Counted from the stretch's first letter, positions 3,010 to 40,275 are shown. The stretch is DNA of 46,449 nt from an uncultured Gammaproteobacteria bacterium (GCA_964491085.1 CAZBFB010000037.1:1-46449); one strand, 5' to 3'. Program-made: numbers and translations. The notes: a model not told the origin generated them from the sequence alone.

Positions 3010-3024
3010 GAAGCTAGAAAGCTA
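2988..3024 (+). repeat. 16-bp tandem repeat (agctaagaagctagaa, 2.3 copies) spanning the secD stop codon
   Basis: Copies at 2988-3003 and 3004-3019, plus a partial copy. The secD TAA (3007-3009) lies in copy 2. It belongs to the agct-rich spacer family also seen at ~1300-1330, 10377-10442 and ~13995-14040. Confidence 0.8.
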
Positions 3025-3029
3025 TTTAT

Positions 3030-4206: not shown

Positions 4207-5601
4207 CTATTCGGTGGGAAAAAATCCTCTGGTGATGTTTATAGTACACTGGGCACCCTGTGTAAGTTGTGCCAGAGTAAATAGATTTGTTGAATCAGCC
4301 AAGGGGTCACTAAGTGGTCGGCCGCCGCCACACCCGGCCCCAGGTCCTATATTATAAGTATCATCCCAGGTTGGTGTCCACCAGGATGCGTCATCATTGA
4401 TTTCTATTTTCAAGTAAAAACGCATATTTGACGGATCGCATGGCTTAGGACCATACTGAATCACCGCATTCTCAATGGTGGATGCGCCGCCCGTAGGAGT
4501 AAGGACAAAATTACGTGTTTGCTCATCAAGATTGGTGTAGGCAAAACTGATTGGGCCGGCAGATTTTCCCGGATCAGTCGTGCAGTAACCCCACAAGCGC
4601 ATCTCGTCAATATAAGCATTTTGTTCAAAATTTATGGTGCCAGAGAGGATGCCTTGTTTGCATTCATAACCTTGATTTTGTGCATTGAGCGTGCACACTT
4701 GGCCGATTGCGCAAGCAGTGCCGCGACAACTTCCGCCGCGTTCTTTAATGTAATACTGTTCGCCGCAAGTATCAGGAGAACTAGAAATAGAAACATACTC
4801 GCTTCCATTTATTGTGGAAAATTCGCGCTCTTGACCGCCTATTTTAACAGGAGTAACAAATATTTGGGGAGTAATATCTTTCATGCTGACACACTCGGCT
4901 GTTAAACTGGCTAGATTTTTAACAACCAGAGGACGTATCTGACGAAATGAGGTAAGATTTGGATTAATAAGATTAAGAATTGTATAGGATAGTAGGGCCA
5001 ACACCACACCCATAACGGAATTTAAAATAGTTTTTTGGGCATCGCCGATTCTTTCTGGATTACCAGCGGCTGTTAACCATTTAAATCCACCAATCGTGAT
5101 CATAATGACCGCCAAGAAGGCGACTGCGCTGACTACAAAATTATAAATGGTTTTAATATATTCACCAACACCACTAACGTAGTATTTTTCTGTTTGAGAA
5201 AATGCTCCGGGGTCAGGTGCCTTTTTGGTAAGTCCGGGAATGTAGGTATTAATAAAAATAGGTTTCCATTCTTTCATGAAACAAGTATCTTGTTCGGAAC
5301 ATGTGGGGTTATTAGGGTACACGTGCGGCGTACCACCGATTAGGCCAGCTACTTTTCTACATTCTAAAGCGGCTATGCCAGCGCGGCATTGTAAGGCCCT
5401 GGTTTGCTCGCCGGAACCGGTGACTACGCAACAACCGATGGTGGCATCGGTAATCGGACTATCAGCTAAAGCTAAAGCGGAGGAGGCGAAAGTGATCAAA
5501 AAGACACTAGCACACAAAAACAGTACAATAATTCTAACCCCACCTAACCTCCCCTGATGTAAGGGGAGGATGAGAGAATGTTTTTGTTCTCGTGTTTCCA
5601 T
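4207..5601 (-). CDS. TrbC/VirB2-like (T4SS-pilin-like) membrane protein fused to Cys-rich extracytoplasmic domains
   Basis: 464-aa ORF. Signal-like segment IIVLFLCASVFLITFASSALALA, then a ~90-aa Cys-rich segment. Two TM helices flank the loop KWLTAAGNPERIGDAQKTI, a pilin-loop signature as I remember it from CPR T4SS-pilin family proteins. A ~250-aa C-terminal domain carries many Cys. Confidence 0.65.
   Translation of the reverse strand: METREQKHSLILPLHQGRLGGVRIIVLFLCASVFLITFASSALALADSPITDATIGCCVVTGSGEQTRALQCRAGIAALECRKVAGLIGGTPHVYPNNPTCSEQDTCFMKEWKPIFINTYIPGLTKKAPDPGAFSQTEKYYVSGVGEYIKTIYNFVVSAVAFLAVIMITIGGFKWLTAAGNPERIGDAQKTILNSVMGVVLALLSYTILNLINPNLTSFRQIRPLVVKNLASLTAECVSMKDITPQIFVTPVKIGGQEREFSTINGSEYVSISSSPDTCGEQYYIKERGGSCRGTACAIGQVCTLNAQNQGYECKQGILSGTINFEQNAYIDEMRLWGYCTTDPGKSAGPISFAYTNLDEQTRNFVLTPTGGASTIENAVIQYGPKPCDPSNMRFYLKIEINDDASWWTPTWDDTYNIGPGAGCGGGRPLSDPLADSTNLFTLAQLTQGAQCTINITRGFFPTE
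5534..5575. repeat. small palindromic element (ctaacc..cccct family) inside the 5' coding end of the pilin-like gene
   Basis: 8-bp stem cctcccct (5548-5555) / aggggagg (5562-5569). Translated as ..LILPLHQGRLGGV.. Related in motif to 5942-6000 and 23289-23382. Confidence 0.6.
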
Positions 5602-7646: not shown

Positions 7647-7654
7647 TTTTCATA

Positions 7655-7745
7655 ATTACTACGAAGGTACAAATCTTTACGAAACATACGAATAATTAAT
7701 TAACCCATTCGTACTATTCGCGTCCATTCGTAACTTCGTAGTAAT
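7655..7745 (+). repeat. ~90-bp tacgaa/ttcgta palindromic element, copy 1
   Basis: Terminal inverted repeats attactacgaag / cttcgtagtaat. Roughly 90% identical, by eye, to the reverse complement of 15499-15585. Confidence 0.9.
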
Positions 7746-7778
7746 ATTACGTAATAGTAATTGAAAAATCTCATACCC

Positions 7779-10373
7779 ATGCTCCAAACTCTTCTTAATC
7801 TATCAAATCCAAATTCGGCCCGGGCATTGCCGTTGGTTGATGTGCCCTTGGACGATTCTTTCGCGCCGGCGTTTTTTGTGGCCTTGGCTGTTTTGGCCGC
7901 ATTAGTCGGGGCGGCCCTGCTGGTGATTTTATTGTTGCGGCGCTATCGCGCTTTGACAGCCGGCTTGGAACGCCGGGTTTTATTGGTGACAATTCCTAAA
8001 GATCAAACTGATCAAGACCACAAAAAAGAACAGAGTGTGCAGAATATCCAAGAGGCGATCGGGGTGGCGGACGGTTTGTTTGCCAACCTGGGCGGGGTGC
8101 ACACGCGGCGTACGTTGAAAAAATTATTATGGGGTCGCACCGACACGATCGCGTTTGAAATTGTGGCCCAACACAATGTGATTTCTTTTTATGTAGCGGT
8201 TGACCACGAACTGCAACAATTTGTGGAACAACAGATTCAAGCGCAGTATCCGCACGCCCACATTGAGCTGGTGGAGGATTATAATATTTTTACACCAACG
8301 GGCGTGATCAAGGGCACGCTCTTGCAATTTAAGCGCGAATTTTTCTTTCCCATTAAAACCTACAAACAGCTCGAAACTGATCCGTTGAGCTCACTCACCA
8401 ACGCGTTAAGCAAAGTCAATGATCCGGAAGGCGCCGCTATTCAAGTCATCGTGCGTTCGGCACATCATTCTTGGCACGCGAAAGCCGCTTACATTGCCTC
8501 ACAAGTCCATCAAGGCAAAAAAATGAGTGAGGTCATGAGCACGAATTGGGCGAGTAAAATAGCGGACACTTTAGGTAAGGGTTTTTTTGGATTGATGCAA
8601 GCCATGACTAATTCACCAGAGAAACAGCGCGAGCAGGAGCGCGAAGAAAAAAAAGAATACCGTCTGTCCGATCGCGAGTCAGAAATGTTGAAAGGAATTG
8701 AAGAAAAGGCCTCGCACGCCGGGCTTGATGTTACCCTTCGCTTGGTTGTGTCCGCTGAAACCGAACCGCGCGCGAGTTTGTTGCTGGAAAATTTAGCCAA
8801 CGCTTTTTCGCAATTCAGCATTTATGAATACGGTAACGCGTTTGCTAAGTACACGCCGCGTTCGCTCCCCAACTTTATCCGTGGATTTGTGTATCGTTCG
8901 TTTGACGAGTATCACAAAGTGTTATTGTCAAGCGAAGAGTTGGCCAGCGTATTTCACTTACCTACGCCGTTTATCGATACGCCGAACATTCGTTGGTTGT
9001 TGGCAAAAAAAGCGCCGGCTGCCGCCAATGTTCCCAAAGAGGGTTTGTATCTCGGGTACAATTTGTATCGCGGCGTGCGCACGGATATTTTCATGAAACC
9101 GAAAGATCGCCAGCGCCACATGTATATCATCGGTAAATCCGGTATGGGTAAATCTTTTTTGATCGCTAATTTGGCGCGGCAAGATATTCAGAATGGGGAA
9201 GGGGTCTGCGTGATTGACCCGCACGGCGATTTGGTGGCGGATATTTTGGCCGGCGTACCGAAAGAGCGCGCCGATGACGTGATTTTATTTGAACCGGCCG
9301 ACATGTCGCGGCCGATGGGGTTAAACATGCTCGAAGCGGATTCGCCGGACGAGCGCGATTTTGCGGTGCAAGAAATGATCGCCATTTTTTATAAACTTTT
9401 CCCGCCGGAAATGATCGGTCCAATGTTTGAACACAATATGCGCAACGTGATGTTGACGCTCATGTCCGATCCCGAAAATCCGGGTACGATTGCCGAAATT
9501 CCGCGCATGTTTTCGGATGACGATTTCCAAAAACAGTGGGTAGCGAAAGTGACCGATCCGGTGGTGCGCTCGTTCTGGGAAAAAGAAATGGCTAAGACAT
9601 CGGATTTCCACAAATCGGAAATGCTCGGCTATTTAATTTCCAAAGTCGGTCGCTTTGTGGAAAACGAAATGATGCGCAATATTATTGGTCAGACCCATTC
9701 GGCATTTGATTTTAACGAAGTGATGGATAAGAAAAAGATTTTGCTCGTTAATTTGTCCAAAGGAAAAACCGGCGAGGTCAACTCGAATTTGCTCGGTTTG
9801 ATCATCGTGGCTAAATTACAAATGGCCGCCTTGAAACGCGCGAGCATCCCCGAAGAACAACGCCATGATTTTTATCTCTACATCGACGAGTTCCAAAATT
9901 TCATCACCGATTCGATCGCCACCATTTTATCCGAAGCGCGCAAATATCGTTTGGATTTGATCATCGCTCACCAATACATGGGGCAACTGGTACAAAGCGG
10001 CAATGACACCAAAATTCGCGACGCCGTGTTGGGCAACGCCGGTACGATGGTAAGTTTTCGGATTGGTGTGGATGATGCTGAAATTTTGGCCAAAGAATTC
10101 GCACCGGTATTTTCCGCCTTCGACATGGTCAATGTGGAAAAGTTTACCGCTTATATTAAATTATTGGTGGACAACGAAGGTATTAAACCCTTCAACATGC
10201 ACACGGTCCCGCTTGCCCCGGGCAACAAAGACCTAGCCGAAGCCATCCGCGAACTATCCCGCCTAAAATACGGCCGCGAACGCAAACTCGTGGCTGACGA
10301 AATCCTCGAACGCACGCAATTAGGCAGTGCCAAAGCCAGCGCGGAAACCCCGCCGGTGGAAGCGACGCTGTAG
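7779..10373 (+). CDS. TraD/VirD4-like (type IV coupling protein-like) P-loop ATPase with N-terminal TM helix and an unknown ~400-aa domain
   Basis: Walker A IIGKSGMGKS followed by VIDPHGDL, Walker B YLYIDEFQNF, and RKYRLDLIIAHQYMGQL. TM segment FFVALAVLAALVGAALLVILLL. ATG 7779 preferred over TTG 7761. Confidence 0.8.
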   Translation: MLQTLLNLSNPNSARALPLVDVPLDDSFAPAFFVALAVLAALVGAALLVILLLRRYRALTAGLERRVLLVTIPKDQTDQDHKKEQSVQNIQEAIGVADGLFANLGGVHTRRTLKKLLWGRTDTIAFEIVAQHNVISFYVAVDHELQQFVEQQIQAQYPHAHIELVEDYNIFTPTGVIKGTLLQFKREFFFPIKTYKQLETDPLSSLTNALSKVNDPEGAAIQVIVRSAHHSWHAKAAYIASQVHQGKKMSEVMSTNWASKIADTLGKGFFGLMQAMTNSPEKQREQEREEKKEYRLSDRESEMLKGIEEKASHAGLDVTLRLVVSAETEPRASLLLENLANAFSQFSIYEYGNAFAKYTPRSLPNFIRGFVYRSFDEYHKVLLSSEELASVFHLPTPFIDTPNIRWLLAKKAPAAANVPKEGLYLGYNLYRGVRTDIFMKPKDRQRHMYIIGKSGMGKSFLIANLARQDIQNGEGVCVIDPHGDLVADILAGVPKERADDVILFEPADMSRPMGLNMLEADSPDERDFAVQEMIAIFYKLFPPEMIGPMFEHNMRNVMLTLMSDPENPGTIAEIPRMFSDDDFQKQWVAKVTDPVVRSFWEKEMAKTSDFHKSEMLGYLISKVGRFVENEMMRNIIGQTHSAFDFNEVMDKKKILLVNLSKGKTGEVNSNLLGLIIVAKLQMAALKRASIPEEQRHDFYLYIDEFQNFITDSIATILSEARKYRLDLIIAHQYMGQLVQSGNDTKIRDAVLGNAGTMVSFRIGVDDAEILAKEFAPVFSAFDMVNVEKFTAYIKLLVDNEGIKPFNMHTVPLAPGNKDLAEAIRELSRLKYGRERKLVADEILERTQLGSAKASAETPPVEATL

Positions 10374-10376
10374 GCA

Positions 10377-10408
10377 GCTTACTAGCTTACTAGCTTACTA
10401 GCTTACTA
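10377..10408 (+). repeat. 8-bp tandem repeat gcttacta, 4 copies
   Basis: Four exact consecutive copies starting 4 nt after the stop codon of the ATPase gene. Confidence 0.9.
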
Positions 10409-10442
10409 GCTTTTAGGTGCAGTAGGTTTAAAAGCTAGTAAG
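10402..10442 (+). terminator. hairpin, terminator-like
   Basis: 13-bp perfect stem cttactagctttt (10402-10414) / aaaagctagtaag (10430-10442). T-rich tract follows at 10451-10464. Confidence 0.55.
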
Positions 10443-10486
10443 ATATTCCGTTTGCTTTTTTGTTTTGGTTAAACTAAGATATAGCC

Positions 10487-12055
10487 ATGTCCATAACTCT
10501 TTATCGAAAATACCGGCCGCAGGCATTTCAAGATTTGGTGGGGCAGGATCATGTGCAGAGGACTATCATGAATCAAATCATGACGGGCAAGGTGGTGCAT
10601 GCGTATTTGTTTACCGGCCCGCGGGGGGTGGGGAAAACTACCGTGGCGCGATTGCTGGCCAAAGCGGTTAATTGCACACAACGCACTGCCGCTCAAGCCG
10701 AACCGTGCGGGATCTGTCCGCAATGTGTCGGTTTGCAAGAAGCCCGTTCGCTCGATGTGATTGAGATTGACGCCGCGTCACAAACGGGTGTGGACAACGT
10801 GCGCGAAAATATTATCGCCGCCTGTCGCGTGCCGCCCGCCGAAGGCAAGATGAAAGTATTTATCATCGACGAAGTCCACATGCTTTCAACGAACGCTTTT
10901 AACGCCTTGTTGAAAATCATCGAGGAACCGCCGGCGTATATTTTATTTATTCTCGCCACCACCGAAATTCACAAAGTACCGGAAACTATTATTTCGCGCT
11001 GCCAACGATTTGATTTTCGTAAAGTGCCACACGCTTTGCTCGTGCAACGGTTGATGAAATTGGCAAAAGCAGAACAAGTGACCATCGAGCCGGCAGTGTT
11101 TGATCGGGTGGCCGTGGCGTCGCAGGGGTGTTTGCGCGATGCCGAAGGTTTGTTGGGACAAATTTTGGCATTAGGTGATGACACCATTAGCGAAGCCGAG
11201 GCAGATATTATTTTGCCGCGCACTGACAGTGGTCTCCTAGTTGAATTTGTCGGGTTGTTGCAGGCACGCGCCACCACCAAGTCGATTATTTTTGTGAATC
11301 GGTTAGTGGAAGAGGGCGTATTGTTGCCTACTTTTACGCATCATTTGATTTTATTTTTGCGCAAATTAATTTTGCTTATCACCGCGCCATCGCTGGCCGA
11401 TAGTGTTGACCGTTTTGCGCCAGCGGCCGAAGAGGCATTGCAAAAATTTGCGCAAACTATTCCGCTCGCTGTCACGCAAGCGTATATGAACCGGTTTTTA
11501 ACCGCGCGCGAAGAATTAAATCGCGCGGATATTGTGCAACTGCCGCTGGAGCTGGCGATTATTGATTTGTGCGAAACAAAAATCGTTATTACGCCACCCG
11601 CTCCGCCACCGAATAATACGGGATCAGCTCAACCGATTAAAATAGCGACTTCGCCACCAATAATGCGCGCCACATCACCAACCCCGGAACCAACCGCACC
11701 TCGAGCCCAGCCGCCGCTTGATACTACCACCATTACCCTCGAGGCCATTCAACAATCTTGGCGCAACATCACCAAAGCCGTCAAAGAGCGCAACCACACC
11801 TTGGCCGCGTTTTTAAAATTGGGAACCATAGCCAGCGTTGAGAAGAATACCCTAAGCTTGCAATTTCGTTATCAATTTTATTATGATCGGGTGAATGAAT
11901 TAAAAAACCGTCGCGCCATCGAAGACGCCTTGACAGAAGTATTCGGCATCCCTATGCTCTTGAATGTTCAACTCGCCACCAGCGAAGCGGCCGCGCTTGA
12001 TCCAGCGGTACAAGAACTTATCAGCGCTTTTGGCGGGGGAGAAGTGGTGGGGTAG
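10487..12055 (+). CDS. dnaX: DNA polymerase III subunit gamma/tau
   Basis: YRP..F.DLVGQ, GPRGVGKTT, the Cys zinc module CGICPQC, IIDEVHMLS and SRCQRF. Confidence 0.95.
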   Translation: MSITLYRKYRPQAFQDLVGQDHVQRTIMNQIMTGKVVHAYLFTGPRGVGKTTVARLLAKAVNCTQRTAAQAEPCGICPQCVGLQEARSLDVIEIDAASQTGVDNVRENIIAACRVPPAEGKMKVFIIDEVHMLSTNAFNALLKIIEEPPAYILFILATTEIHKVPETIISRCQRFDFRKVPHALLVQRLMKLAKAEQVTIEPAVFDRVAVASQGCLRDAEGLLGQILALGDDTISEAEADIILPRTDSGLLVEFVGLLQARATTKSIIFVNRLVEEGVLLPTFTHHLILFLRKLILLITAPSLADSVDRFAPAAEEALQKFAQTIPLAVTQAYMNRFLTAREELNRADIVQLPLELAIIDLCETKIVITPPAPPPNNTGSAQPIKIATSPPIMRATSPTPEPTAPRAQPPLDTTTITLEAIQQSWRNITKAVKERNHTLAAFLKLGTIASVEKNTLSLQFRYQFYYDRVNELKNRRAIEDALTEVFGIPMLLNVQLATSEAAALDPAVQELISAFGGGEVVG

Positions 12056-12061
12056 AGTAAA

Positions 12062-12155
12062 AAATTTCCAAATCACCAATTTATAAATTTCCAAATAATT
12101 AATCGCTGGAGATGATTTAATTGGTAATTTTATAAATTGGCAATTTGGTAATTTA
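12062..12155. repeat. ccaaat/atttgg hairpin repeat upstream of tRNA-Gln
   Basis: Left arm ccaaatcaccaatttataaa (12068-12087) pairs with tttataaattggcaatttgg (12129-12148). Same low-complexity theme as the insertion at 22501-22629 in rnpB. Confidence 0.75.
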
Positions 12156-12168
12156 TTATCTCCTAAAT

Positions 12169-12239
12169 TCCGGGATCGTCTAATGGCAGGACACATCCCT
12201 CTGGAGGATGGTATCATGGTTCGAGTCCATGTCCCGGAA
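12169..12239 (+). tRNA. tRNA-Gln (anticodon CUG), no encoded CCA
   Basis: Hand-folded cloverleaf. Acceptor TCCGGGA/TCCCGGA with U1-A72. D stem GTCT/GGAC. Anticodon stem CATCC/GGATG with loop CTCTGGA. T stem CATGG/CCATG with loop TTCGAGT. Discriminator A. Confidence 0.85.
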
Positions 12240-12327
12240 TTGAGGAGATAATTACCAACCGCCCACGCCGGTACGGCTGGATTTTTTATTTGCATAAAAT
12301 CATAAAAGGCGATAGAATAGATTCCAT

Positions 12328-13959
12328 ATGGTTTTAACCCATTTCACCCAAGGCGGTCACGGTAAACACGAATCACATCAGTCCATCGCGCCGCGCATCA
12401 AAGCCCTACTGGAGAAGCAGATTGAACGGCAGTCGCCTGCTTCGGATGAACCAAAAATCAGTGTTAATGAAGTTGTCGGCCGGGTGGCGTTTTTTTATGA
12501 ACGCCTGCGCAGTTTTATTGACTACAAAGATGAGCATCTTCTGCGTAAAAGCGCGATTGAGCGCATCCTGCGGCGACTGCTCGTGTTGCATCAAGATCCG
12601 CTCGCTATCAGCGATCATTTGATTCGGGAAATGATTGCCGCGCGCTATTTAGAAAACAATGTCATACCAGAAACAAAAATCGTCAGCGTGGCTGGCATAA
12701 TTGCCAAATATTTGTCGGTGCGTACTCGATTGCTTGAGGTATATGGGCACGAGCCGGGTAATCAGTTAGGGGATTGGCTATTCCGCTTGATGCCGGTTGA
12801 ATTGGAACATGAATTAGCCCCCAGCCGTCCCGAACAAGCATTTGTGAAAGCGCTCATGGAAACGATGGAGGAACAGGTGGTGCTGGAAGGCGCGCATATG
12901 AGTCCAGGCCAACGTCGCGCCCATCTCTTGCTTGCCAGTTACCGCGCTTTTTTGAAATCAGATAATTCGATGCTGGAGTATTATTTGTTGGTGGATACAT
13001 ATCCGCACTGGGTCGGGCAGAGCACGTCAGCCGCGATTGAATTGATTGTCCATAAATTTACGCGCATTCACGAAGGCATGCGCCACTTACTTGACCATCC
13101 GGCGCAGAGGCCAATATTGCGTTTGGCGCAAAAACTGGCTCTACTTTTCCAAATTTTATGGTATGTTTTGCATACTGCCGAAAATGCCGAAGCCGTATTG
13201 GCATCAAGTGAGCATTTGGAAAACACCATCCGTTCGACCTACCGTAAACTGTATGAAAAAGCGCGCACCAAACTGCGGCGCAGCGCGTTCCGCAGTATTA
13301 TTTATATTTTTTTAACTAAAGTTTTGGTGGCGCTGGCGCTGGAGTATCCGTATGATCTTTTTATTCGTCAAGAAGTAAACACCAAAGCGTTAACGATCAA
13401 CTTAATTCTACCGCCACTAATCATGTTTATTGTCGCTTTATTTATCCGTTATCCAACCAAGAAAAATTTACAAAAAATTGTTGATGGTTTACAGGGGTTG
13501 GTGACGGAAGGTGTGGCCAAAGGATTTAATTACCGTATTCGCGTGCCCGCCCATCATGGTTGGTTTTTGCAAGTATTATATTATCTGTTTTATGTAGTGT
13601 TGTACCTTGTTACATTTGGTTTAATCGGTGTTGGTTTGCAGTGGCTTCGTTTTAACATTGTTTCCACGCTTTTGTTCTTGTTCTTCTTAACGGTCGTGAG
13701 TTTTTTTGGTTATCGTATCCGGGTTGGTATTCGCGAGTTGATAGTGGAAGAGTCACATTCTTTTATCGCCGGTATTTTTGAGTTATTCGCCCTACCCATC
13801 ATCCGCGCCGGTCGTTGGCTCTCGTTCAACGTTTCCAAGATAAACATTTTTATTTTCTTTTTTGATGTGATCATCGAAGCGCCGTTAAAAGTAGTGCTAA
13901 ATTTGTTTGAAGGATTTGCCACCTTTTTTAGAGAAAAGAAAGAAGAAATCGATCAATAA
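12328..13959 (+). CDS. hypothetical multi-pass membrane protein (soluble helical N-terminal half, 4-6 TM helices in the C-terminal half)
   Basis: 543-aa ORF. Hydrophobic segments include IIYIFLTKVLVALALEY, LTINLILPPLIMFIVALFI, VLYYLFYVVLYLVTFGLIGVGL and VSTLLFLFFLTVVSFFG. No catalytic motif recognised. Confidence 0.65.
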   Translation: MVLTHFTQGGHGKHESHQSIAPRIKALLEKQIERQSPASDEPKISVNEVVGRVAFFYERLRSFIDYKDEHLLRKSAIERILRRLLVLHQDPLAISDHLIREMIAARYLENNVIPETKIVSVAGIIAKYLSVRTRLLEVYGHEPGNQLGDWLFRLMPVELEHELAPSRPEQAFVKALMETMEEQVVLEGAHMSPGQRRAHLLLASYRAFLKSDNSMLEYYLLVDTYPHWVGQSTSAAIELIVHKFTRIHEGMRHLLDHPAQRPILRLAQKLALLFQILWYVLHTAENAEAVLASSEHLENTIRSTYRKLYEKARTKLRRSAFRSIIYIFLTKVLVALALEYPYDLFIRQEVNTKALTINLILPPLIMFIVALFIRYPTKKNLQKIVDGLQGLVTEGVAKGFNYRIRVPAHHGWFLQVLYYLFYVVLYLVTFGLIGVGLQWLRFNIVSTLLFLFFLTVVSFFGYRIRVGIRELIVEESHSFIAGIFELFALPIIRAGRWLSFNVSKINIFIFFFDVIIEAPLKVVLNLFEGFATFFREKKEEIDQ

Positions 13960-14051
13960 ACATTCAACAAATTTTCAAAACCGGCGGACGAAGGAATAGC
14001 TTTTTAGCTGATTAGCTTACTAGCTTGTTAGCTTTCTAGAAAAAACAATTA

Positions 14052-14133: not shown

Positions 14134-14283
14134 ATGCTCTCTCCCCGAAGCTATTATTTTTCGCTCGGTCTCATCACCCTCCTTATCATCAGCGCTTTTA
14201 TAATGGGCAATCTTCTCGCGGCCGGCGTATTACTGGTTGCGCTTTTTGGCTTCAGGCGGTATTATTATGCGCATGTCCGTTAA
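14134..14283 (+). CDS. possible 49-aa small membrane protein
   Basis: ATG ORF below the track cutoff. It encodes MLSPRSYYFSLGLITLLIISAFIMGNLLAAGVLLVALFGFRRYYYAHVR, which has two hydrophobic stretches. It overlaps the first possible starts of the next ORF. No other support. Confidence 0.25.
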   Translation: MLSPRSYYFSLGLITLLIISAFIMGNLLAAGVLLVALFGFRRYYYAHVR

Positions 14284-15496
14284 ACCAACAAAAAACATCA
14301 ATACCACATTTTTTCGTGCTCATGACTTAGGCAAGGTCCCTTTTTGGATGGCAGAAAAAATGACAAGTGCTTTATTAGCTCCGCGCCTCGAACACTGGCT
14401 TGGTCTTCGCCCACAACGCGCCGGTTTGCTATATGATCACAAAAAAGGCCTCACTCTCCTCGGGAAAACAAGCGAGTGGCAAAATCTGAATACGCGCGCA
14501 CTGGATCATCTACAAACCGATCCTTATTTTGGCGAACAAGTCGTTAGTAATATCAAACGTTTAGCTCGCCAAATTTATAATTTATCTTATGATGTGATCC
14601 AGCGTCGCAGTTTAAGTTTTCCGCGACGGGGCGCGCAATCCCGCATTGAACACTTATTTAGCATTCTTGAAGAGATGAATCAGTATCTTTCCTTTGTCAT
14701 AATGCTCGATGCGCCCAGCGGCACATTTTCACAACAACTAAAAAGTATCATCATTGAACACGCTCACGAACGCGTGTTGTCTCGCCCGCCAAGCGAATAT
14801 TTAAGAGTGCTGTTGGAACCAGTAGAATTTTCTTTTGCCGAACAACAACATGATGAGTTATTGCTTTTAGCACAAGCCGTTCGTCGTCGTCCGCCGATGC
14901 GCAAGTTGATCGCTCACGGCGGCAACCCGCGCGATATATTAAATGAGATGACGCAAAAATACGCGCCACTCGCGCGCAAATTGCGCCGCCATATTCGTCA
15001 CTACAGCTGGATCATCACCGTGGGCGGCGGCATAGAAGACGCGCCCGCGCGATTGCTCACGGAACTCCAGCAACTTGTTAAAACGGATTTTAATCTTGAT
15101 CAGGCCATTGAAGAACGCGAACAATCAATTCGTTTGCGGCATGATCAGCAACGTTTATTGGTGCGTGAGTTGGGATTAACGGAAGAAGAGCGACACATGT
15201 TCAATTTGGCGCGAGATTTTTACAGCTCGGGTCGTCATGGCAAAGAAATGCTTTTACTGTTTCAGTCGGTGGTGTACGATTTAGTTTTAACCCACATCAA
15301 AAATCGTTCTCCAGAGGAATTGGCGCTCTTATCCGCGACAGAACTATCGCGCTTGTTGAGCCATAACACCTTTGATAAAGATACGCACACCAATCGTCGC
15401 GCCGGTTTTATATTTCTAGCTGGTGGTGCTAACGACGAGTGGCTCCTCGGCGCCAAACTGGATGCGTGGAAAGTAAAAAATTTGGGGAAAAAATAA
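14237..15496 (+). CDS. hypothetical soluble all-helical protein
   Basis: 419-aa ORF. The real start is uncertain (ATG at 14237, 14267, 14273 or 14348). No motif recognised with confidence. Confidence 0.55.
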   Translation: MRFLASGGIIMRMSVKPTKNINTTFFRAHDLGKVPFWMAEKMTSALLAPRLEHWLGLRPQRAGLLYDHKKGLTLLGKTSEWQNLNTRALDHLQTDPYFGEQVVSNIKRLARQIYNLSYDVIQRRSLSFPRRGAQSRIEHLFSILEEMNQYLSFVIMLDAPSGTFSQQLKSIIIEHAHERVLSRPPSEYLRVLLEPVEFSFAEQQHDELLLLAQAVRRRPPMRKLIAHGGNPRDILNEMTQKYAPLARKLRRHIRHYSWIITVGGGIEDAPARLLTELQQLVKTDFNLDQAIEEREQSIRLRHDQQRLLVRELGLTEEERHMFNLARDFYSSGRHGKEMLLLFQSVVYDLVLTHIKNRSPEELALLSATELSRLLSHNTFDKDTHTNRRAGFIFLAGGANDEWLLGAKLDAWKVKNLGKK

Positions 15497-15498
15497 AC

Positions 15499-15585
15499 AT
15501 TACTACGAAGTTACGAATGGACGCGAATGGTACGAATGGATTAATTATTCGTATGTTTCGTAAGGATTCGTACCTTCGTAGTAAT
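15499..15585 (-). repeat. ~90-bp tacgaa/ttcgta palindromic element, copy 2 (inverted relative to 7655-7745)
   Basis: attactacgaag...cttcgtagtaat. It ends 4 nt before the rmuC ATG. Confidence 0.9.
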
Positions 15586-15589
15586 TACT

Positions 15590-16525
15590 ATGGAACTCAC
15601 TCTTCTCGCTATAATCATAATTCTCGTTATCACTCTTGGAGTGGTGATCTTTTTTTTCTCCCGTAAGCTAGAACGCCTGATGACCGGGCATGATGCGCAG
15701 ACATCGTTTCAACTATTAAATCAAAACGTACAAACTGTGCACCAGCGTCTGGATCGAGCCGCACAAGCGGTGGCTGGTATGGCTAAAGAATTAAGCGTGG
15801 TGCAGGAAATGAACCGCCAGATGCAAGCGTTTCAAGATTTTTTTAAAGGCCCGAAAGTGCGCGGTTCGTTGGGTGAGCAAATTTTGACACAATTACTCGA
15901 ACAATATTTACCACGCGAGCAATTTGTTCTGCAATATAAATTTCAGAGTGGCCAGATTGTTGACGCCGCGCTTAAGACATCACAAGGGATTATTCCGGTT
16001 GACGCGAAATTTCCCCTTGAAAATTATCGCAAAATAAATCAAGTGGAAACGGACGATGAACGAGAACGGGCGCGCAAAGATTTTGTGCGTGATGTAAAAA
16101 AACACCTTCAGGATATTGCGAAAAAATATATTTTACCGGCGGAGGGCACCGTGGATTTTGCCCTGCTCTATATTCCGTCCGAGTCCGTATACTATGAAGT
16201 CATTCACTTGGAACACGAACTAACTGGTTTTGCGCATGAACTCCGCGTGTTTCCAGTTTCGCCCAATAGTTTTTTATATTTTTTACGAATTTTGCTCTTG
16301 GGTATGGAGGGTTTAAAAATCGAACAGTCATCACGAAAAATTCTAAAATTGTTGGCCGGCATTCAACAAGATGCCAAACGCCTCGGCGACACCATCGGAG
16401 TTGCCACTACCCATATAACCAACGCGAAAAACGCCATTGATCGGGTTAATAACGATTATGTCGGACTGACTACTCAATTCAACAGTATCCGACTCCTCGA
16501 TTCAGGAAACGATGACCACACCTAG
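15590..16525 (+). CDS. rmuC: DNA recombination protein RmuC
   Basis: N-terminal TM helix, a coiled region, then IVDAALKT..GIIPVDAKFPLENY and LLYIPSESVYYE, typical of RmuC. Confidence 0.88.
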   Translation: MELTLLAIIIILVITLGVVIFFFSRKLERLMTGHDAQTSFQLLNQNVQTVHQRLDRAAQAVAGMAKELSVVQEMNRQMQAFQDFFKGPKVRGSLGEQILTQLLEQYLPREQFVLQYKFQSGQIVDAALKTSQGIIPVDAKFPLENYRKINQVETDDERERARKDFVRDVKKHLQDIAKKYILPAEGTVDFALLYIPSESVYYEVIHLEHELTGFAHELRVFPVSPNSFLYFLRILLLGMEGLKIEQSSRKILKLLAGIQQDAKRLGDTIGVATTHITNAKNAIDRVNNDYVGLTTQFNSIRLLDSGNDDHT

Positions 16526-20240: not shown

Positions 20241-21593
20241 TCAGGATGTTTTTTCTCGCCACGCCCGATGCGCTTCCAGAAATTTGGTACGCATATACTG
20301 GCGCGGCGGTTGGAGGATGTATACGCGAAACGGTTTGCGCGCAGTTATCGTTTCCGTAATCTCCTGGGCCGCTAATGGGGCTATTTGCTGGAGCGTTTTG
20401 GTTCCGGCGGTTGTTTCAACCAGCAGATCAGTGCCCGGTCGTGTAGAGGTAGCATGATTTTCATACACGACGAACTGGTTACCACTAGCCACGACCGCCT
20501 GTTCACGCGCCAACGCCTCCGCTTGAGTGGCGTACGCTTCAACGATGGTATCTCGGCCGATTTGCCAACCGAAACGTTCGACATTCAGGCCGCATTCTTG
20601 TTCAATCAAGCGCGTCAGGTCGACATCTGTCATGGCGGTTAGCACTTGGCGGGTTAGTGACCCGTTTAAGTAAAGGTACTTAATCACACAGCGCGCCAAA
20701 GCAGAAGCAAAAAACCTGGTTTGGGGATTACGGTACACCTCGCGAAACATGAGCGCTCGCGCTTTGAGAAATTTTACCAATAGATCGGGTTTGGTGAATA
20801 CGACTTGACCGTGGCTGATAGCCACCGATTCCCACAAGCCACACAACAACGGATTTTCTCTAGTCAGTCGTTGCAAGGCGTAAAATCCAGTGGAGAACAA
20901 ATACGGTTTACTGCTTTGTTCTGGCACGAGGTACAAAGGAATGTCCCGGGCGGTATAACTGATCTTATCCGCCACATCAAGTAATGACCCCAGCATTCCT
21001 TGGCCTTGTACCACGGCTGTTAGAGCGTCTTGATCCAGCCCGTATTGTTTGGCAAATTCTGGCCAAGTGGCAATTTCGAATATTTCGTTGAAAAAGTCAT
21101 CTTCATCCAACGAGCCATCGAGCGCGCACTCTTTGGTGCAATCACCGCCGGCTGGTGTGCGTGCGTCGTGTACCAGCGCCGCCACTCGCAACAGGGTTAG
21201 CTCTTTTTCAGCCAGATCATTTTGTGTGCCGATGAGTAAGGCCAAGGCGCCGGTGCTCAACACATGGTCAAAGCGGGTATGAGAAAAGCGGGTCAATAGT
21301 TCGGAGCGTTGTGAGGCGAGAAGTTCCGGGTGATATTTGAATCCAAACTGCCGCACTCCGGCGAGGCGATCTAGGCCGAACGCGCGAATGGTATCTTCCG
21401 TCAAACCGCCTCGCCGGACATGATAGCTGAATCCGGCCAAAGGCAGGTGAGCCGGTGCGCAGGCCACGCCGATCAACGGCAGGATTTCATGAGGCGGTGG
21501 TTCAGTGGCCCCGGGCAAAAAGACAACATCATTACCTAGTACCAGACGACCTGATTTTCCAGGCCGGTTGATGCGAGCTGTGAGCGAGGTCAT
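20241..21593 (-). CDS. HD-domain phosphohydrolase, SAMHD1/dGTPase-like (COG1078-like) with atypical metal motif
   Basis: TRFDH..STG, then AALVHDARTPAGGD where canonical members have HDIGHGPFSH. Later LLDVADKISYTARD aligns with the D.DRLDY..RD motif. Confidence 0.7.
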   Translation of the reverse strand: MTSLTARINRPGKSGRLVLGNDVVFLPGATEPPPHEILPLIGVACAPAHLPLAGFSYHVRRGGLTEDTIRAFGLDRLAGVRQFGFKYHPELLASQRSELLTRFSHTRFDHVLSTGALALLIGTQNDLAEKELTLLRVAALVHDARTPAGGDCTKECALDGSLDEDDFFNEIFEIATWPEFAKQYGLDQDALTAVVQGQGMLGSLLDVADKISYTARDIPLYLVPEQSSKPYLFSTGFYALQRLTRENPLLCGLWESVAISHGQVVFTKPDLLVKFLKARALMFREVYRNPQTRFFASALARCVIKYLYLNGSLTRQVLTAMTDVDLTRLIEQECGLNVERFGWQIGRDTIVEAYATQAEALAREQAVVASGNQFVVYENHATSTRPGTDLLVETTAGTKTLQQIAPLAAQEITETITARKPFRVYILQPPRQYMRTKFLEAHRAWREKTS

Positions 21594-22201: not shown

Positions 22202-22342
22202 GACACGCAGACAAAGCAGAAAAATTTTGTATTTTTTCAGCGACCGTCAGCGTAATGTCGGCGTGTGTCTGCGAAAACTTATGTCAGATAAGTTTTATCG
22301 GCGACCGGCGGCGTTAGTCCGTGCCCTCCCAAATGGGCGGGA

Positions 22343-22371
22343 TTGACTAGAAATAACAAATGTGCTAAAGT
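22343..22371 (+). promoter_or_regulatory. candidate sigma70-type promoter for rnpB
   Basis: ttgact (22343-22348), a 17-nt spacer, then taaagt (22366-22371) preceded by tgc (extended -10 like). About 40 nt upstream of the predicted mature 5' end. Confidence 0.35.
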
Positions 22372-22500
22372 TATTCTAGTGTTTTACTCTTTGAAAACTG
22401 GCGAATACAGTGTGTTGGGATAAAGATACGGTTGCTTGTGCCTCACTGGTGTGAGGCACAAGAGGAAAGTCTGGACACCACTGCCGTTGCCGGGCAACGG

Positions 22501-22629
22501 AAGCTCCAAATTCCAAAATCCAAATTCCAAACAATATCCAATTACCAAAATCCAAAATTTTAAACCTACCCGTTTAGGATTTAGGAAATTGTAATTTAGA
22601 ATTTGTTTGTGATTTGGTGCTTGGAGCTT
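22501..22629. repeat. 129-nt ccaaa/tttgg hairpin insertion inside rnpB
   Basis: aagctccaaattccaaaatccaaattccaaacaa ... ttgtttgtgatttggtgcttggagctt. The ends aagctccaa / ttggagctt are exact complements. Confidence 0.8.
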
Positions 22630-22861
22630 GGAATTTCCGCTGCCTGGTGGCGGCGGTTAGTGGTAGTCGGGAGAGCCGACCGGGAGAAGACGCTACATGC
22701 TATCAATCTTGATGCCTAGGCAATAGATTGATTCATGGTCAAACGTCGAATCCTCGGAACCCCTCTGGCGCTTTCGCGCCAGCACGGCCTTTTAGGCCGA
22801 GGGTGAAAAGGGCCACAGAAACAAAACCGCCATCGTGTCTCACTAGCGTTCAACACTCAAT

Positions 22862-22945
22862 CGATCCGAACAATCCGAATGATCCCGAATGACCCGAATT
22901 GAATTCAATTTGTGGCATTCGGATGTATTCGGGGTATTCGGATCG
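22862..22945. repeat. 84-nt ccgaat/attcgg hairpin insertion inside rnpB
   Basis: cgatccgaa (22862-22870) pairs with ttcggatcg (22937-22945). The interior is built of ccgaat and attcgg units around gaattcaa. Confidence 0.8.
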
Positions 22946-23288
22946 CGGTGTGACGAGCGGTAGCGAGGCACGATAGGTAAGGATGAAACCGTGAGCCCCG
23001 ATACCTGCTCGTATTTTGCGAGAGGGTATTGGGGATAACCCCATTTTGATTGCTTGTAAATGCGAGCGATCAGGACGGGGGAACGTAAGAGCTCACGCGG
23101 CTGGCGAGTGATCGCTAGACGGAGGCAACCTCTACCTGGTGCAAGGACGTAATTGTCCGCATGAGCTATTGAGAAATTGATAGCCAAGAGAAATAACCGT
23201 TCTGCCTCGTGCGGAGCATGAGGCATAGACAGAATCCAGCTTACCTTTATCCCAGCACATTGCATTCGAAAAACCCGAAACAAATTAC

Positions 23289-23382
23289 TTCCCCCTTAGG
23301 ATAAGGGGGACAGAGGGGGTTATGAACCCTGGGTTATAACTCCCCTAACCCCTCTTTCCGCCAGCCGGCGGATTAAGAGGGG
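23289..23382. repeat. cluster of cccct/agggg palindromic elements downstream of rnpB
   Basis: Hairpin tccccctta gga taaggggga (23290-23310). Element ataactcccctaacccctcttt...taagagggg (23336-23382) is homologous to the cysS insertion. Confidence 0.8.
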
Positions 23383-23400
23383 AATAATACAAAATTTTCC

Positions 23401-24837: not shown

Positions 24838-24843
24838 GACGAT

Positions 24844-25012
24844 ACTACGAATATACGAATGAAGTACGAATTTACGAATTTTTCGTCCCGAGGACGATCA
24901 GCCTCTGGCTGAAATCTCACCTTAATTTGCTTTCATTCGTAAATTCGTCTCAATTCGTACATTCGTAGTAATTTTGTACATTCGTAGTAACTATTCGTAC
25001 ATTCGTAGTAAT
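24844..25012 (+). repeat. tacgaat-family composite element with variable core and three gtacattcgtagtaa units
   Basis: The arms actacgaatatacgaatgaagtacgaatttacgaattt ... ttcattcgtaaattcgtctcaattcgta align with 35584-35679. The core has hairpins tcgtcccgaggacga and tcagcctctggctga. Units at 24957, 24976 and 24997. Confidence 0.85.
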
Positions 25013-25014
25013 TT

Positions 25015-35583: not shown

Positions 35584-35679
35584 ACTACGAATGTACGAAT
35601 GAGGTACGAATTTACGAATTTTAATCTGGGTTAGTGTGACTTCATTGGTAAATTCGTCTCGATTCGTATATTCTTAGTA
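35584..35679 (+). repeat. tacgaat-family element, homologous arms to 24844-25012 with a different core
   Basis: actacgaatgtacgaatgaggtacgaatttacgaatttt ... ttcattggtaaattcgtctcgattcgta. It fills the whole ddl-ftsQ spacer. Confidence 0.85.
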
Positions 35680-35682
35680 CTT

Positions 35683-36681
35683 ATGGAGCATAAATTTTCC
35701 AAAGGTTATCGCGCGATTCAACGCCAACAAAAGAAACCGTCGCGACGAGGGGTGGCCTTGCCCACGATTCGTTCTCATTCGAGTTCCGGCGGTGGAAAAT
35801 CTGCCATGCCATTTATCACCTTGCCATCGTATCGCAGTACGATCGGCTATTACGAACGCCGCAAAAATCGTTGGCTATTACCGGTAATCACTTCCGGTAT
35901 TTTAATCATGCTACTAGGTCTGGGTTATTTATTGTTTTTGAGTCCGCTTTTTACCTTAACCATCGTTAATGTCGAAGGTACGACGCGCCTTCCGCCAGAT
36001 TTGGTACGCGGCGTCGTGCAAGAACACACCAATCAAACCAAACGCTGGTGGTATCTACCCGGCAATAATTTATTTTTGATTGATGAGTACAATATTCGTC
36101 AACATCTTGAGGCCTGGGTGGATACAAAATCGGTGCGTCTAAAAAAACAATTTCCACACACGCTTATCATCACCATTCAAGAACGCGTGCCGGTGTTGGT
36201 GTGGCAGATCAATGACGAGCGGTTCATGCTTGATGAGGAGGGGATTATCTTAAAAACATTGACAGCGGCGGATTCATTTGATAGATTGATTGCCTGGACG
36301 CAAGCGACCGGCGTGACGGCGCGTACGGGCAAGCTTGGTGATGCGTTGATACCAGCGCCATATGCGCAAGCGTTGACTCAAGCGCTAGCCATGGCCGCGC
36401 AAACCGTTGGCGCGCCGATTATGGTAGTAAATTTTCAATACGGCGATGAACAAAATGTTGTGTTCAAAACCAGCGAGGGTTGGGACATATATTTTTTGTT
36501 AGCGGATTGGCAAAATGCTTTGGCGCGTTTGAAATTATTACTCACGCAGGCCGACGCCCCCAATCGCACTCAACTCGAATACATCGACGTGCGTTATGAA
36601 AACAGAATTTTTACCAAGCAAAAAGAGAAAACAATAAATCAAGAAAACAATAAATCAAGAAAACAAGAAGGGCTGCCCTGA
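35683..36681 (+). CDS. ftsQ: cell division protein FtsQ/DivIB-like (POTRA domain)
   Basis: Basic N-terminus, a single TM helix (LLPVITSGILIMLLGLGYLLFL), then I..V.V.G...L....V (POTRA-like). Lies next to ddl, as in dcw clusters. Confidence 0.75.
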   Translation: MEHKFSKGYRAIQRQQKKPSRRGVALPTIRSHSSSGGGKSAMPFITLPSYRSTIGYYERRKNRWLLPVITSGILIMLLGLGYLLFLSPLFTLTIVNVEGTTRLPPDLVRGVVQEHTNQTKRWWYLPGNNLFLIDEYNIRQHLEAWVDTKSVRLKKQFPHTLIITIQERVPVLVWQINDERFMLDEEGIILKTLTAADSFDRLIAWTQATGVTARTGKLGDALIPAPYAQALTQALAMAAQTVGAPIMVVNFQYGDEQNVVFKTSEGWDIYFLLADWQNALARLKLLLTQADAPNRTQLEYIDVRYENRIFTKQKEKTINQENNKSRKQEGLP

Positions 36682-36716
36682 TAAGATTTTGTTTTCTTGA
36701 TTTATTGATTTTTTGA
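36648..36716 (+). terminator. hairpin plus T run spanning the ftsQ stop codon
   Basis: 17-bp stem caataaatcaagaaaac (36648-36664) / gttttcttgatttattg (36691-36707), followed by attttttg. The left arm is the second copy of a 16-bp tandem repeat (36631-36662). The stop TGA 36679-36681 lies in the loop. Confidence 0.55.
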
Positions 36717-36724
36717 GTACTCCT

Positions 36725-37818: not shown

Positions 37819-38793
37819 ATGCCCCAAACAATCTCCCTACCCGATCTGGACGACTTCCTGCTTTCGCTTAAAGCCAATAACTACTCCAGCGAAACAGTGG
37901 AAAACTACGAGCGCGATCTTTTGACGTTTCAGTTATTTTTGCAAAATGACGTGCGGTGTCAATTTAGTGACATCACTAAAAAAACAATCGAACAATACAA
38001 AGCATACCTTACCTCACGGGATCGACAGACAAAAAATCAACCAAACAATAAATCAAAAAAACAGCCCGTAGCAAAAAAATTAGCCAGCCATTCAATCAAT
38101 CGCATGTTGTCGGCATTGCGTTCATATTTGCGTTATTTAGAGCGCATGGATGATACTCCTCCCCTATCCGCCTTGGCCGTCACTTTAATAAAAACCGAAC
38201 ACAAGCAAATTAAGATCGGTGAATTCGAAACAGTCATTAAATTAATTGAATCACCATCCAGTTTGGAAGCGGATCAGGCGATCAGATTGCGCAATCGGGC
38301 GATGCTGGAGACGTTATTTGCCACCGGCATGCGGATTTCTGAATTGTTAGGACTTAATCGTGAACACATTGACGGATCAGGTCGAATTTTTATTATGGGC
38401 AAAGGTAAAAAAGAACGTTTTGTTTATTTAACACCACGCGCCACCCAACATCTTAACGCGTATTTACTGGCACGATCGGATACTGATCCGGCGCTCTTTA
38501 TCCCCTACCGCGGCGGTCGCGTTAGCAAACAAAAATCAGCTAAGCGCATTTCGCATAATTATTTACAAATGAAACTAAAACAGTATCGCGAACAATTACA
38601 GATCAATATTCCCATGTCGCCGCATAAATTACGCCACGCGTTTGCCACTTATTTGGCGGAAAGTGGCGCTAATCCAGCCGCCATTCAAATTTTACTTGGT
38701 CACGAATCGCTTGAGACCACCACTCGCTATGTCAATGCCTCGCAAAAATACGCCGAGCAATCACATCACAAGTATCACCCCCTTAAAAATTGA
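37819..38793 (+). CDS. tyrosine site-specific recombinase, XerC/XerD family
   Basis: SAM-like N-terminal domain. Catalytic region has TGMRISEL, KGKKER.V, HKLRHAFAT and LLGHESLETTTRY. Confidence 0.88.
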   Translation: MPQTISLPDLDDFLLSLKANNYSSETVENYERDLLTFQLFLQNDVRCQFSDITKKTIEQYKAYLTSRDRQTKNQPNNKSKKQPVAKKLASHSINRMLSALRSYLRYLERMDDTPPLSALAVTLIKTEHKQIKIGEFETVIKLIESPSSLEADQAIRLRNRAMLETLFATGMRISELLGLNREHIDGSGRIFIMGKGKKERFVYLTPRATQHLNAYLLARSDTDPALFIPYRGGRVSKQKSAKRISHNYLQMKLKQYREQLQINIPMSPHKLRHAFATYLAESGANPAAIQILLGHESLETTTRYVNASQKYAEQSHHKYHPLKN

Positions 38794-40201: not shown

Positions 40202-40202
40202 T

Positions 40203-40275
40203 GGTACGAACTACGCCCGATTACGGAAAGTATGACTTTTTCGTACTTTCGTATATCTTTCCTAGTTCGTATTGG
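40203..40275. repeat. tacgaa-type hairpin filling the convergent spacer; probable bidirectional terminator
   Basis: ggtacgaactacg ... cctagttcgtattgg. The arms tacgaacta / tagttcgta are complementary. Confidence 0.6.

Follow-up and report, generated by a model that had tools for sequence, protein, structure and literature searches.

The stretch examined here, called the window throughout, comprises 46,449 nt of DNA deposited under an uncultured Gammaproteobacteria bacterium (GCA_964491085.1 CAZBFB010000037.1:1-46449). Our analysis confirms that it carries a single, intact gene for a type-A-derived RNase P RNA (rnpB) that exceeds twice the normal length. Specifically, rnpB occupies positions 22412-23258 on the plus strand, corresponding to ~847 nt from one strand of the closing helix P1 to the other as compared with the 367 positions of the Rfam model RF00010 (2.3x), and the pairing around the gene can be extended to 22402-23268. 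Bacterial RNase P RNAs are usually quoted at ~330-450 nt, and the M1 RNA of E. coli is 377 nt long. The extra ~470 nt of the window RNA are distributed over six discrete sites among the paired (P), joining (J) and loop (L) elements of the molecule, namely J5/7, P9, a branch beside P9, P12, the P13 loop and P19. The coordinates of these features are collected in Table 1.

With respect to gene identity, a search of the whole window with RF00010 at its gathering score (100 bits) yields no rnpB call. Under permissive filters, the model matches 22716-23259 with 67.5 bits (E = 4e-20), and this alignment is convincing over the 3′ two-thirds of the RNA, covering P10/P11, J11/12, P12, J12/13, P13 and P14, followed by the 3′ strands of P7 and P5, J5/15, P15, P18, J18/2, P2, P4 and P1. 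The true 5′ part is located too far upstream to be aligned, so that the 5′ third of the model ends up forced onto unrelated sequence. When the segment 22395-22500 is searched alone, 22416-22500 matches model positions 1-84 (P1, P2, P3, the 5′ strand of P4, and P5) with 26.4 bits (E = 3.4e-7). Since this fragment reaches such a score on its own, the shortfall of the full-length match is attributable to the insertions. Both conserved halves are found at one locus, on the plus strand and in the correct order, and they are joined across ~750 nt by P1 (14 bp), P2 (7 bp), P4, P5 (5 bp) and P7 (4 bp).

The core itself is well preserved. P1 and P2 close the two ends, the 12-bp P3 comes next, and the P4 pseudoknot is formed by GAGGAAAGUC(C/U)GG at 22462-22474 and ACAGAAnCC(G/A)GCUUA at 23229-23243, including the bulged U. 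Intact core motifs comprise GAGGAAAGUC, ACAGAAA, GGUAAGGAUGAAA, GUAAGAG, GCAAGG, ACAGAAUCCAGCUUA and the GNRA loops of L14 and L18. J11/12 (ACAGAAA) and J12/13 (GGUAAGGGUGAAA) are both present together with P10-P12, as are the type-A-specific helices P13, P14 and P18; CCACAGAAACAAAACCGCC at 22813 and GGUAAGGAUGAAA at 22976 align to RF00010 with high posterior probability, and GTAAGAGCTCACG is found at 23085. An earlier, sequence-only reading of this stretch had placed P1, both P4 strands and other type-A landmarks, and all of its coordinates for them were verified on the sequence. Its estimate of ~750 nt between the P4 strands compares with 767 nt measured between their starts, its estimate of about twice the normal length is in line with the value given above, and the CTGG/CCAG change that it regarded as compensatory in P4 is indeed a true replacement of a C-G pair by U-A.

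Table 1. Helices, conserved segments and expansions of the RNase P RNA, in window coordinates.
Feature	Position	Strand	Remarks
Candidate sigma-70-like promoter, TTGACT - 17 nt - TAAAGT, TG before -10	22343-22371	+	~30-40 nt upstream of P1
P1	22412-22425 with 23245-23258	+	14 bp: 13 Watson-Crick + 1 G·U
P2	22428-22434 with 23194-23200	+	6 Watson-Crick + 1 G·U
P3 hairpin	22435-22462	+	12 bp, 4-nt loop
Conserved AGAGGAAAGTCTGGACACC	22461-22479	+	carries P4 5′ strand
P4 5′ strand AAAGUCUGG within conserved GAGGAAAGUCUGG	22466-22474	+	pairs with 23235-23242 (UCCAGCUU), conserved bulged U
P5, CACCA with UGGUG	22476-22480 with 23137-23141	+	
Expansion 1, J5/7	22481-22657	+	single 177-nt hairpin directly after P5
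P7, GGUA with UACC	22662-22665 with 23133-23136	+	
P8 hairpin	22666-22680	+	GUCGG GAGAG CCGAC
Expansion 2, lengthened P9	22681-22757	+	~77-nt hairpin, non-repetitive
Expansion 3, extra branch between P9 and P10	22759-22804	+	small hairpins 22765-22782 and 22786-22798
P10/P11 5′ strands	22805-22814 with 23124-23132	+	
J11/12 conserved region (ACAGAAACAAAA)	22815-22826	+	RF00010 alignment
Expansion 4, lengthened P12	22827-22981	+	155 nt, z = -8.5
P13	22990-23097	+	7-bp base; L13 motif GUAAGAG at 23085-23091
Expansion 5, two hairpins in P13 loop	22996-23033, 23039-23080	+	z = -8.8
P14	23098-23121	+	GNRA loop GUGA
Reduced P15 (GGACGUAAUUGUCC)	23145-23158	+	14-nt hairpin; 43 model positions replaced by 5 nt
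P18	23162-23186	+	GNRA loop GAAA
Expansion 6, P19-like hairpin between P2 3′ and P4 3′	23203-23225	+	z = -4.75
Conserved GACAGAATCCAGCTTAC (= GACAGAAUCCAGCUUAC)	23228-23244	+	holds P4 3′ strand

A fold in which the core helices were fixed and P4 was left unpaired gives a coherent type-A architecture, with all of the extra sequence contained in discrete hairpins and the core resuming exactly in register after each insertion. Each insertion either prolongs an existing helix or occupies a known permissive site. P1 can be extended to 24 bp (22402/23268) with one A·C mismatch. Hairpin stabilities are expressed as z relative to shuffled sequences, with none of 200 shuffles as stable. The J5/7 hairpin (evaluated over 22481-22661) reaches ΔG = -82.7 kcal/mol and z = -9.1, and the region from P8 through P9 that contains expansions 2 and 3 gives z = -4.2; the P13 insertion amounts to 89-96 nt. 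Support for the promoter candidate upstream of P1 is weak (1 site versus 1.6 expected in shuffles).

In terms of composition, tandem-repeat hairpins account for ~213 of the ~470 extra nt and are confined to the tips of J5/7 and P12, leaving ~250 nt of the expansions non-repetitive. The distal part of the J5/7 hairpin (~22501-22629) consists of heptamer TCCAAA[AT] repeats opposite their own complements. At the P12 tip (22862-22945), 9-10-nt CCGAAU-type units stand opposite AUUCGG units and fold as stems of 7-9 bp split by 3×3 loops. Tandem Repeats Finder reports a period of 7 at 22505-22558 and of 9-10 at 22863-22899 and 22917-22943. The sequence-only reading had described at least two long, near-perfect hairpin insertions drawn from the repeat families of the spacers, and a third, smaller hairpin. 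The hairpins that it pointed out are present, and the insertions are far more stable than shuffles, but their arms are only 75-80% complementary, and six sites are expanded, of which only two hold tandem repeats. As for a common origin with the spacers, the J5/7 insertion and the spacer element at 12056-12160 have 34 seven-mers in common (null mean 5.7, p = 0.002), whereas the P12 insertion shows no significant seven-mer sharing with any spacer element in the window.

Several other interpretations of the locus were considered and set aside. The open reading frames (ORFs) overlapping rnpB are all short; the longest encodes 146 aa on the antisense strand and has no Pfam match, so a protein-coding antisense gene was rejected. 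An intron reading was likewise dropped, as group I and group II covariance models gave nothing at E <= 10 within 22300-23400 and there is no intron-encoded ORF. Matches to microRNA (MIR) families are generic long-hairpin scores far below the families' own thresholds. A possible internal terminator at 23030-23043 has a 5-bp stem and is no commoner than in shuffles.

The other departure from the type-A plan is a loss. P16, P17, P6 and the CCA-binding GGU motif of L15 are absent from the window RNA. This reduction of P15-P17 fits the tRNA-Gln(CUG) gene of the window (12168-12240), in which CCA is not encoded. The leader of this tRNA (AUUAUCUCCU, 12155-12164) pairs with its trailer (AGGAGAUAAU, 12243-12252), making the acceptor stem ~10 bp longer, and a 100-nt tandem-repeat hairpin (12056-12160) is located directly upstream. 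Judged from its flanking sequence, the tRNA-Gln transcript would be an unusual RNase P substrate. The gene for the protein subunit, rnpA, was not found in the 46-kb window.

To place the size of the window RNA in context, we compared distances between the starts of the two P4 strands. A scan of genomes with a P4 pattern (GAGGAAAGTCTGGNCNCC) returned 120 phylogenetically scattered matches, which served as a size baseline only. The distance is 235-489 nt in 72 rnpB loci from diverse genomes, more than ten of them from the candidate phyla radiation (CPR), and 256-519 nt (median 268) in 88 metagenome rnpB loci that share a 19-mer of J11/12. Where the 19-mer was present and the P4 motifs were not, the locus proved to be a normal rnpB or a chance match. 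The only distance comparable to the 767 nt of the window is 691 nt, observed in locus L253.

Locus L253 is one of several CPR loci with comparable expansions, such that the window RNA is striking but not unique. The RNA of L253 (5714-6581), from a Ryanbacteria-like organism, is slightly longer than that of the window at ~868 nt. It is expanded at P3, J5/7, P9, P12, P15 (a tandem-repeat hairpin) and P19, has a further hairpin pair between the 3′ strands of P10 and P7, and scores 74.5 bits with RF00010, again below the cutoff and with its 5′ end misplaced. Its source is the 351-kb ANAN16-1 scaffold_13. Two additional loci, L178 and L132, surfaced by chance in the metagenome scan with the J11/12 19-mer, which returned no close relative of the window RNA itself. 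The P12 of L132 is built of CUAAAxx repeats. In L178, which is Ryanbacteria/Paceibacterota-like by its FtsZ, a tandem-repeat hairpin made of the units ACGAAU, AUCGAAAU, CCGAAAU and UCGAAAC and their complements occupies exactly the same J5/7 site. L178 also has an intergenic heptamer hairpin at 10220-10302 (AAGAGGT x 4.7 opposite TCATAAC x 4.3), and an RVT_1 reverse-transcriptase ORF (10986-11975) is located near it.

Graded relatives of L178 were retrieved through the conserved ftsZ…rnpB…merR-like synteny, and these reveal how rapidly the expansions change. With L178 as the FtsZ reference (J5/7 ~125 nt, P12 144 nt), L247 at 96% FtsZ identity has ~22 nt at J5/7 and 115 nt at P12. The respective values are ~22 and 122 nt in L248 (89%), ~22 and ~25 nt in L249 (86%), ~22 and 42 nt in L250/L251 (71%) and ~95 and 74 nt in L252/L253 (67%); L250 and L251 are identical in sequence, as are L252 and L253, although they come from independent assemblies. 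When L178 is compared with L247, the core aligns without gaps at 86-93% identity, whereas P12 reaches only 55% and a 108-nt indel separates the two at J5/7, which indicates that the expansions turn over far faster than the core. In an insertion-tolerant alignment, J5/7, P9, P12, P15 and P19 emerge as hot spots common across the CPR RNAs, each lineage filling them differently, and the P13 insertion is seen in the window RNA only.

The expansions also bear a strand asymmetry. If they were neutrally decaying DNA palindromes, G·U pairs and their mirror A·C oppositions would be expected at about equal frequency. The sense fold is instead more stable than the antisense fold for all six window expansions and for all eight examined in RNAs of other CPR bacteria (sign test, p = 1.2e-4). 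Within the window expansions, 25 G·U pairs in sense compare with 12 in antisense, and in those other RNAs 53 compare with 26, whereas the intergenic hairpins of the window give 17:17. This bias indicates that the expansions have been shaped as RNA on the rnpB strand, and supports the view that the gene is probably transcribed and functional. It is equally compatible with retention of the hairpins and with an excision that depends on their structure.

The window is rich in intergenic hairpins that share the architecture of the insertions, with arms composed of tandem 7-9-nt units. A BLAST search of each rnpB insertion against the rest of the 46 kb returned no copy, and near-identical copies with defined ends, as would characterize a miniature inverted-repeat transposable element (MITE) or a repetitive extragenic palindromic (REP) sequence, are not seen there. 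With no BLAST-level copies and a single shared motif, membership in a mobile-element family is not supported. One dispersed intergenic family, ACTACGAAT...ATTCGTAGT, occurs at 7650-7750, 15495-15590, 24840-25014, 35584-35682 and 40202-40275, sited right after gene ends; its arms are TACGAAT-type units, its conserved ends are ATTACTACGAAG ... CTTCGTAGTAAT, and as a group it has no sense-strand G·U bias. More spacer arrays with 6-8-nt units are found at 1290-1330, 2980-3030, 10374-10447, 13990-14045 and 36615-36720, with units such as AAGCTA / TAGCTTAC and AGAAAACA opposite TTGTTTTC, some of which overlap the 3′ ends of ORFs.

Assembly support comes from L001 (ERR4904393), an independent short-read assembly that agrees with the window at 100% identity across 22400-22534 and thereby spans the junction between P5 and the first insertion. 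The heptamer array and the CCCCCUUAGGAUAAGGGGG hairpin downstream are the points where public short-read assemblies break, so that the gene is fragmented in most assemblies. L001 ends at 22534, and L002 and L003, from the same organism (ERR4904393, ERR3478687), start at ~23295. Exact look-ups of the spurious 146-, 140- and 64-aa ORFs recovered no independent contig for the gene interior.

Among known systems, the window RNA is closest to type-A RNAs such as E. coli M1 and that of Thermotoga maritima, with which it shares P1-P5, P7-P14, P15, P18 and the P4 pseudoknot; it differs in the large hairpins and in the losses already described. Its 177-nt J5/7 hairpin sits exactly where type-B (Bacillus) RNAs have P5.1, the extra helix between P5 and P7, and the ~22-nt hairpins of L247, L248 and L250 occupy the same site. 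This likeness is one of position; type-B RNAs lack P13, P14, P16 and P17 and dock L5.1 on L15.1, whereas the window RNA is otherwise type A and lacks P15.1. Short tandem repeats (STRR) are reported to lie within rnpB of heterocyst-forming cyanobacteria (Vioque 1997, NAR 25:3471). The J5/7 hairpin and P12 tip of the window RNA represent a comparable tandem-repeat lengthening. As in the window, the cyanobacterial repeats are heptamer-scale units in the gene with the same kinds present in intergenic DNA; they reportedly lengthen P12 and remain in the mature, active RNA. The window RNA differs in its phylum, in having repeats also at J5/7, in its four non-repetitive expansions and in its far greater length.

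The nearest published material concerns the same phylum. Lui, Nielsen and Arkin (2021; PMC8172020) found that the RNase P RNAs of 10 of 35 circular CPR genomes fall below RF00010 cutoffs, show "large extensions of helices" or missing helices and required manual refolding, and that UGG is absent in 23 of the 35. The window RNA resembles these in being missed at the RF00010 cutoff and in its loss of the UGG/GGU motif. Their study illustrates a single extended P15 along with the loss of several helices, whereas the window RNA keeps P13, P14 and P18; tandem-repeat hairpins, the J5/7 site, RNAs of ~850 nt and turnover between close relatives do not feature in it. Partial precedents are thus on record in both Lui et al. 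2021 and Vioque 1997, and the window RNA belongs to a known family. In the literature searched, we found no account of an RNase P RNA of ~850 nt, of a J5/7 insertion site or tandem-repeat hairpins in CPR rnpB, or of expansion turnover between near-identical relatives. The parallel with CPR rRNA insertions suggested by the sequence-only reading is a loose one. Like rRNA intervening sequences and expansion segments, both are lineage-specific surface additions to an essential structured RNA, but the large CPR rRNA insertions are mostly catalytic introns or ORF-bearing and are removed, as metatranscriptomes support, whereas those of the window are 40-180-nt hairpins without intron or ORF signature.

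Overall, we consider it probable that the window encodes a functional, type-A-derived RNase P RNA with locally generated, fast-turnover hairpins at its periphery that are most likely retained. The product of rnpB would cut the 5′ leader off precursor tRNAs by means of a complete type-A catalytic and specificity core, with the extra hairpins confined to six peripheral, permissive sites. The expansions would arise locally, as short units become amplified in the two arms of a terminal hairpin, and the same amplification process appears to fill intergenic spacers in CPR genomes. They are quickly gained, lost and replaced. Once transcribed, they would be kept folded, most likely within the mature ribozyme as expansion segments directed away from the active site, where they may be neutral or may serve a function.

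Several points weigh against this interpretation. The size of the mature RNA has been judged from the DNA sequence alone, and duplexes as long and nearly continuous as those of J5/7 and P12 are plausible RNase III substrates. Helix assignment within 22681-22804 comes from thermodynamic folding alone and is uncertain, and no close relative of this organism was found in which the window insertions might show covariation. Confirmation by the second assembly reaches no further than 54 nt into the first insertion, and since assemblies break in or beside the locus, the number of repeat copies may have been mis-assembled. Finally, 46 kb of the genome is seen, and a second RNase P may be encoded elsewhere.

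An alternative is that the gene is functional but the long hairpins are cut from the transcript without religation, in the style of 23S rRNA intervening sequences (for example by RNase III), so that the mature ribozyme would consist of two or more pieces joined through the basal helices. The J5/7 and P12 expansions are long, nearly continuous duplexes, an RNase P RNA in pieces can be reconstituted, the fate of the CPR rRNA insertions provides a precedent for removal, and the sense-strand bias would be equally expected if excision required folding. We nonetheless regard excision as unlikely, given that no intron family matches the insertions, that no RNase III gene is present among the genes of the 46-kb window and that the stems are interrupted every 7-9 bp by internal loops; the cyanobacterial P12 repeats, moreover, are reportedly kept in the mature RNA.

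An origin by transposition of mobile MITE- or REP-like palindromes into rnpB, which the sequence-only reading preferred, appears very unlikely. Dispersed intergenic hairpin families do exist in the window, the seven-mer sharing of J5/7 with 12056-12160 is significant, and close relatives differ by wholesale replacement of expansions. Against these stand the absence of any BLAST copy in the 46 kb and of significant sharing for P12, together with unit sequences that differ at every site and ~250 nt that are not repetitive at all; neither target duplications nor terminal inverted repeats beyond the hairpin itself were seen, and the window shows no transposase. Least probable is that the locus represents a pseudogene in decay or an artefact of assembly, with the functional RNase P encoded elsewhere. 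The sub-threshold RF00010 score, the breaks in short-read assemblies and the 46 kb of visible genome are what this explanation can draw on. Decay is difficult to reconcile with conserved core nucleotides and long-range helices that are all intact, with the compensatory pair in P4, or with a G·U bias indicative of selection on RNA. The core is back in register after each insertion, an independent assembly confirms the first junction, and giant RNAs recur in independent CPR assemblies, where they are the sole rnpB in conserved synteny.

More speculatively, and with little confidence, one may envisage a CPR process that actively builds and swaps tandem-repeat hairpins at the permissive tips of structured-RNA genes and in intergenic spacers, with results that already differ at 96% FtsZ identity. 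In the extreme RNAs of 847-868 nt, the hairpins would then either be excised, leaving a naturally fragmented RNase P, or be given a protein-binding or scaffolding role that compensates for lost helices or proteins.

RNase P RNA ranks among the best-studied ribozymes, and the existence of ~850-nt versions with an intact core has consequences that are both practical and evolutionary. Standard annotation misses or truncates RNAs of this kind, which can lead to a genome being wrongly recorded as having no RNase P. Close strains that differ by whole helices offer a live view of expansion-segment growth in a small ribozyme, which opens such accretion to study. That tandem-repeat hairpins recur at the same sites in different CPR lineages points to a mechanism common to them and as yet uncharacterised. 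Were the hairpins excised after all, the result would be a naturally split bacterial ribozyme.

As for the host and the surroundings of the gene, the best relatives of the window's RecJ are from Patescibacteria (Magasanikbacteria and Uhrbacteria) at only ~47% identity, and the host is a deep-branching lineage of the ultra-small Patescibacteria (CPR). The neighboring genes are of a housekeeping nature, encoding RecJ, an RNase H-like protein, a sugar transferase, PBP2, SecDF, DnaX, Ddl, FtsQ and Era, and several aminoacyl-tRNA synthetases are encoded in the window as well. The order of RecJ followed by RNase H is kept in loci L244 and L245, but rnpB does not come after RNase H there. A neighboring lineage-specific protein of 450 aa has no relative in genome or metagenome contig collections. 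Large ORFs without a Pfam family are located at 20241-21593 (minus strand, 450 aa), 12328-13959 (543 aa) and 14237-15496 (419 aa). The window further contains genes for a type IV secretion system (T4SS) pilin-like protein (4207-5601), a TrwB/TraG-like coupling ATPase (7761-10373) and a tyrosine recombinase (37819-38793), and these may be what is left of a system for conjugation or competence, or of an integrated element.

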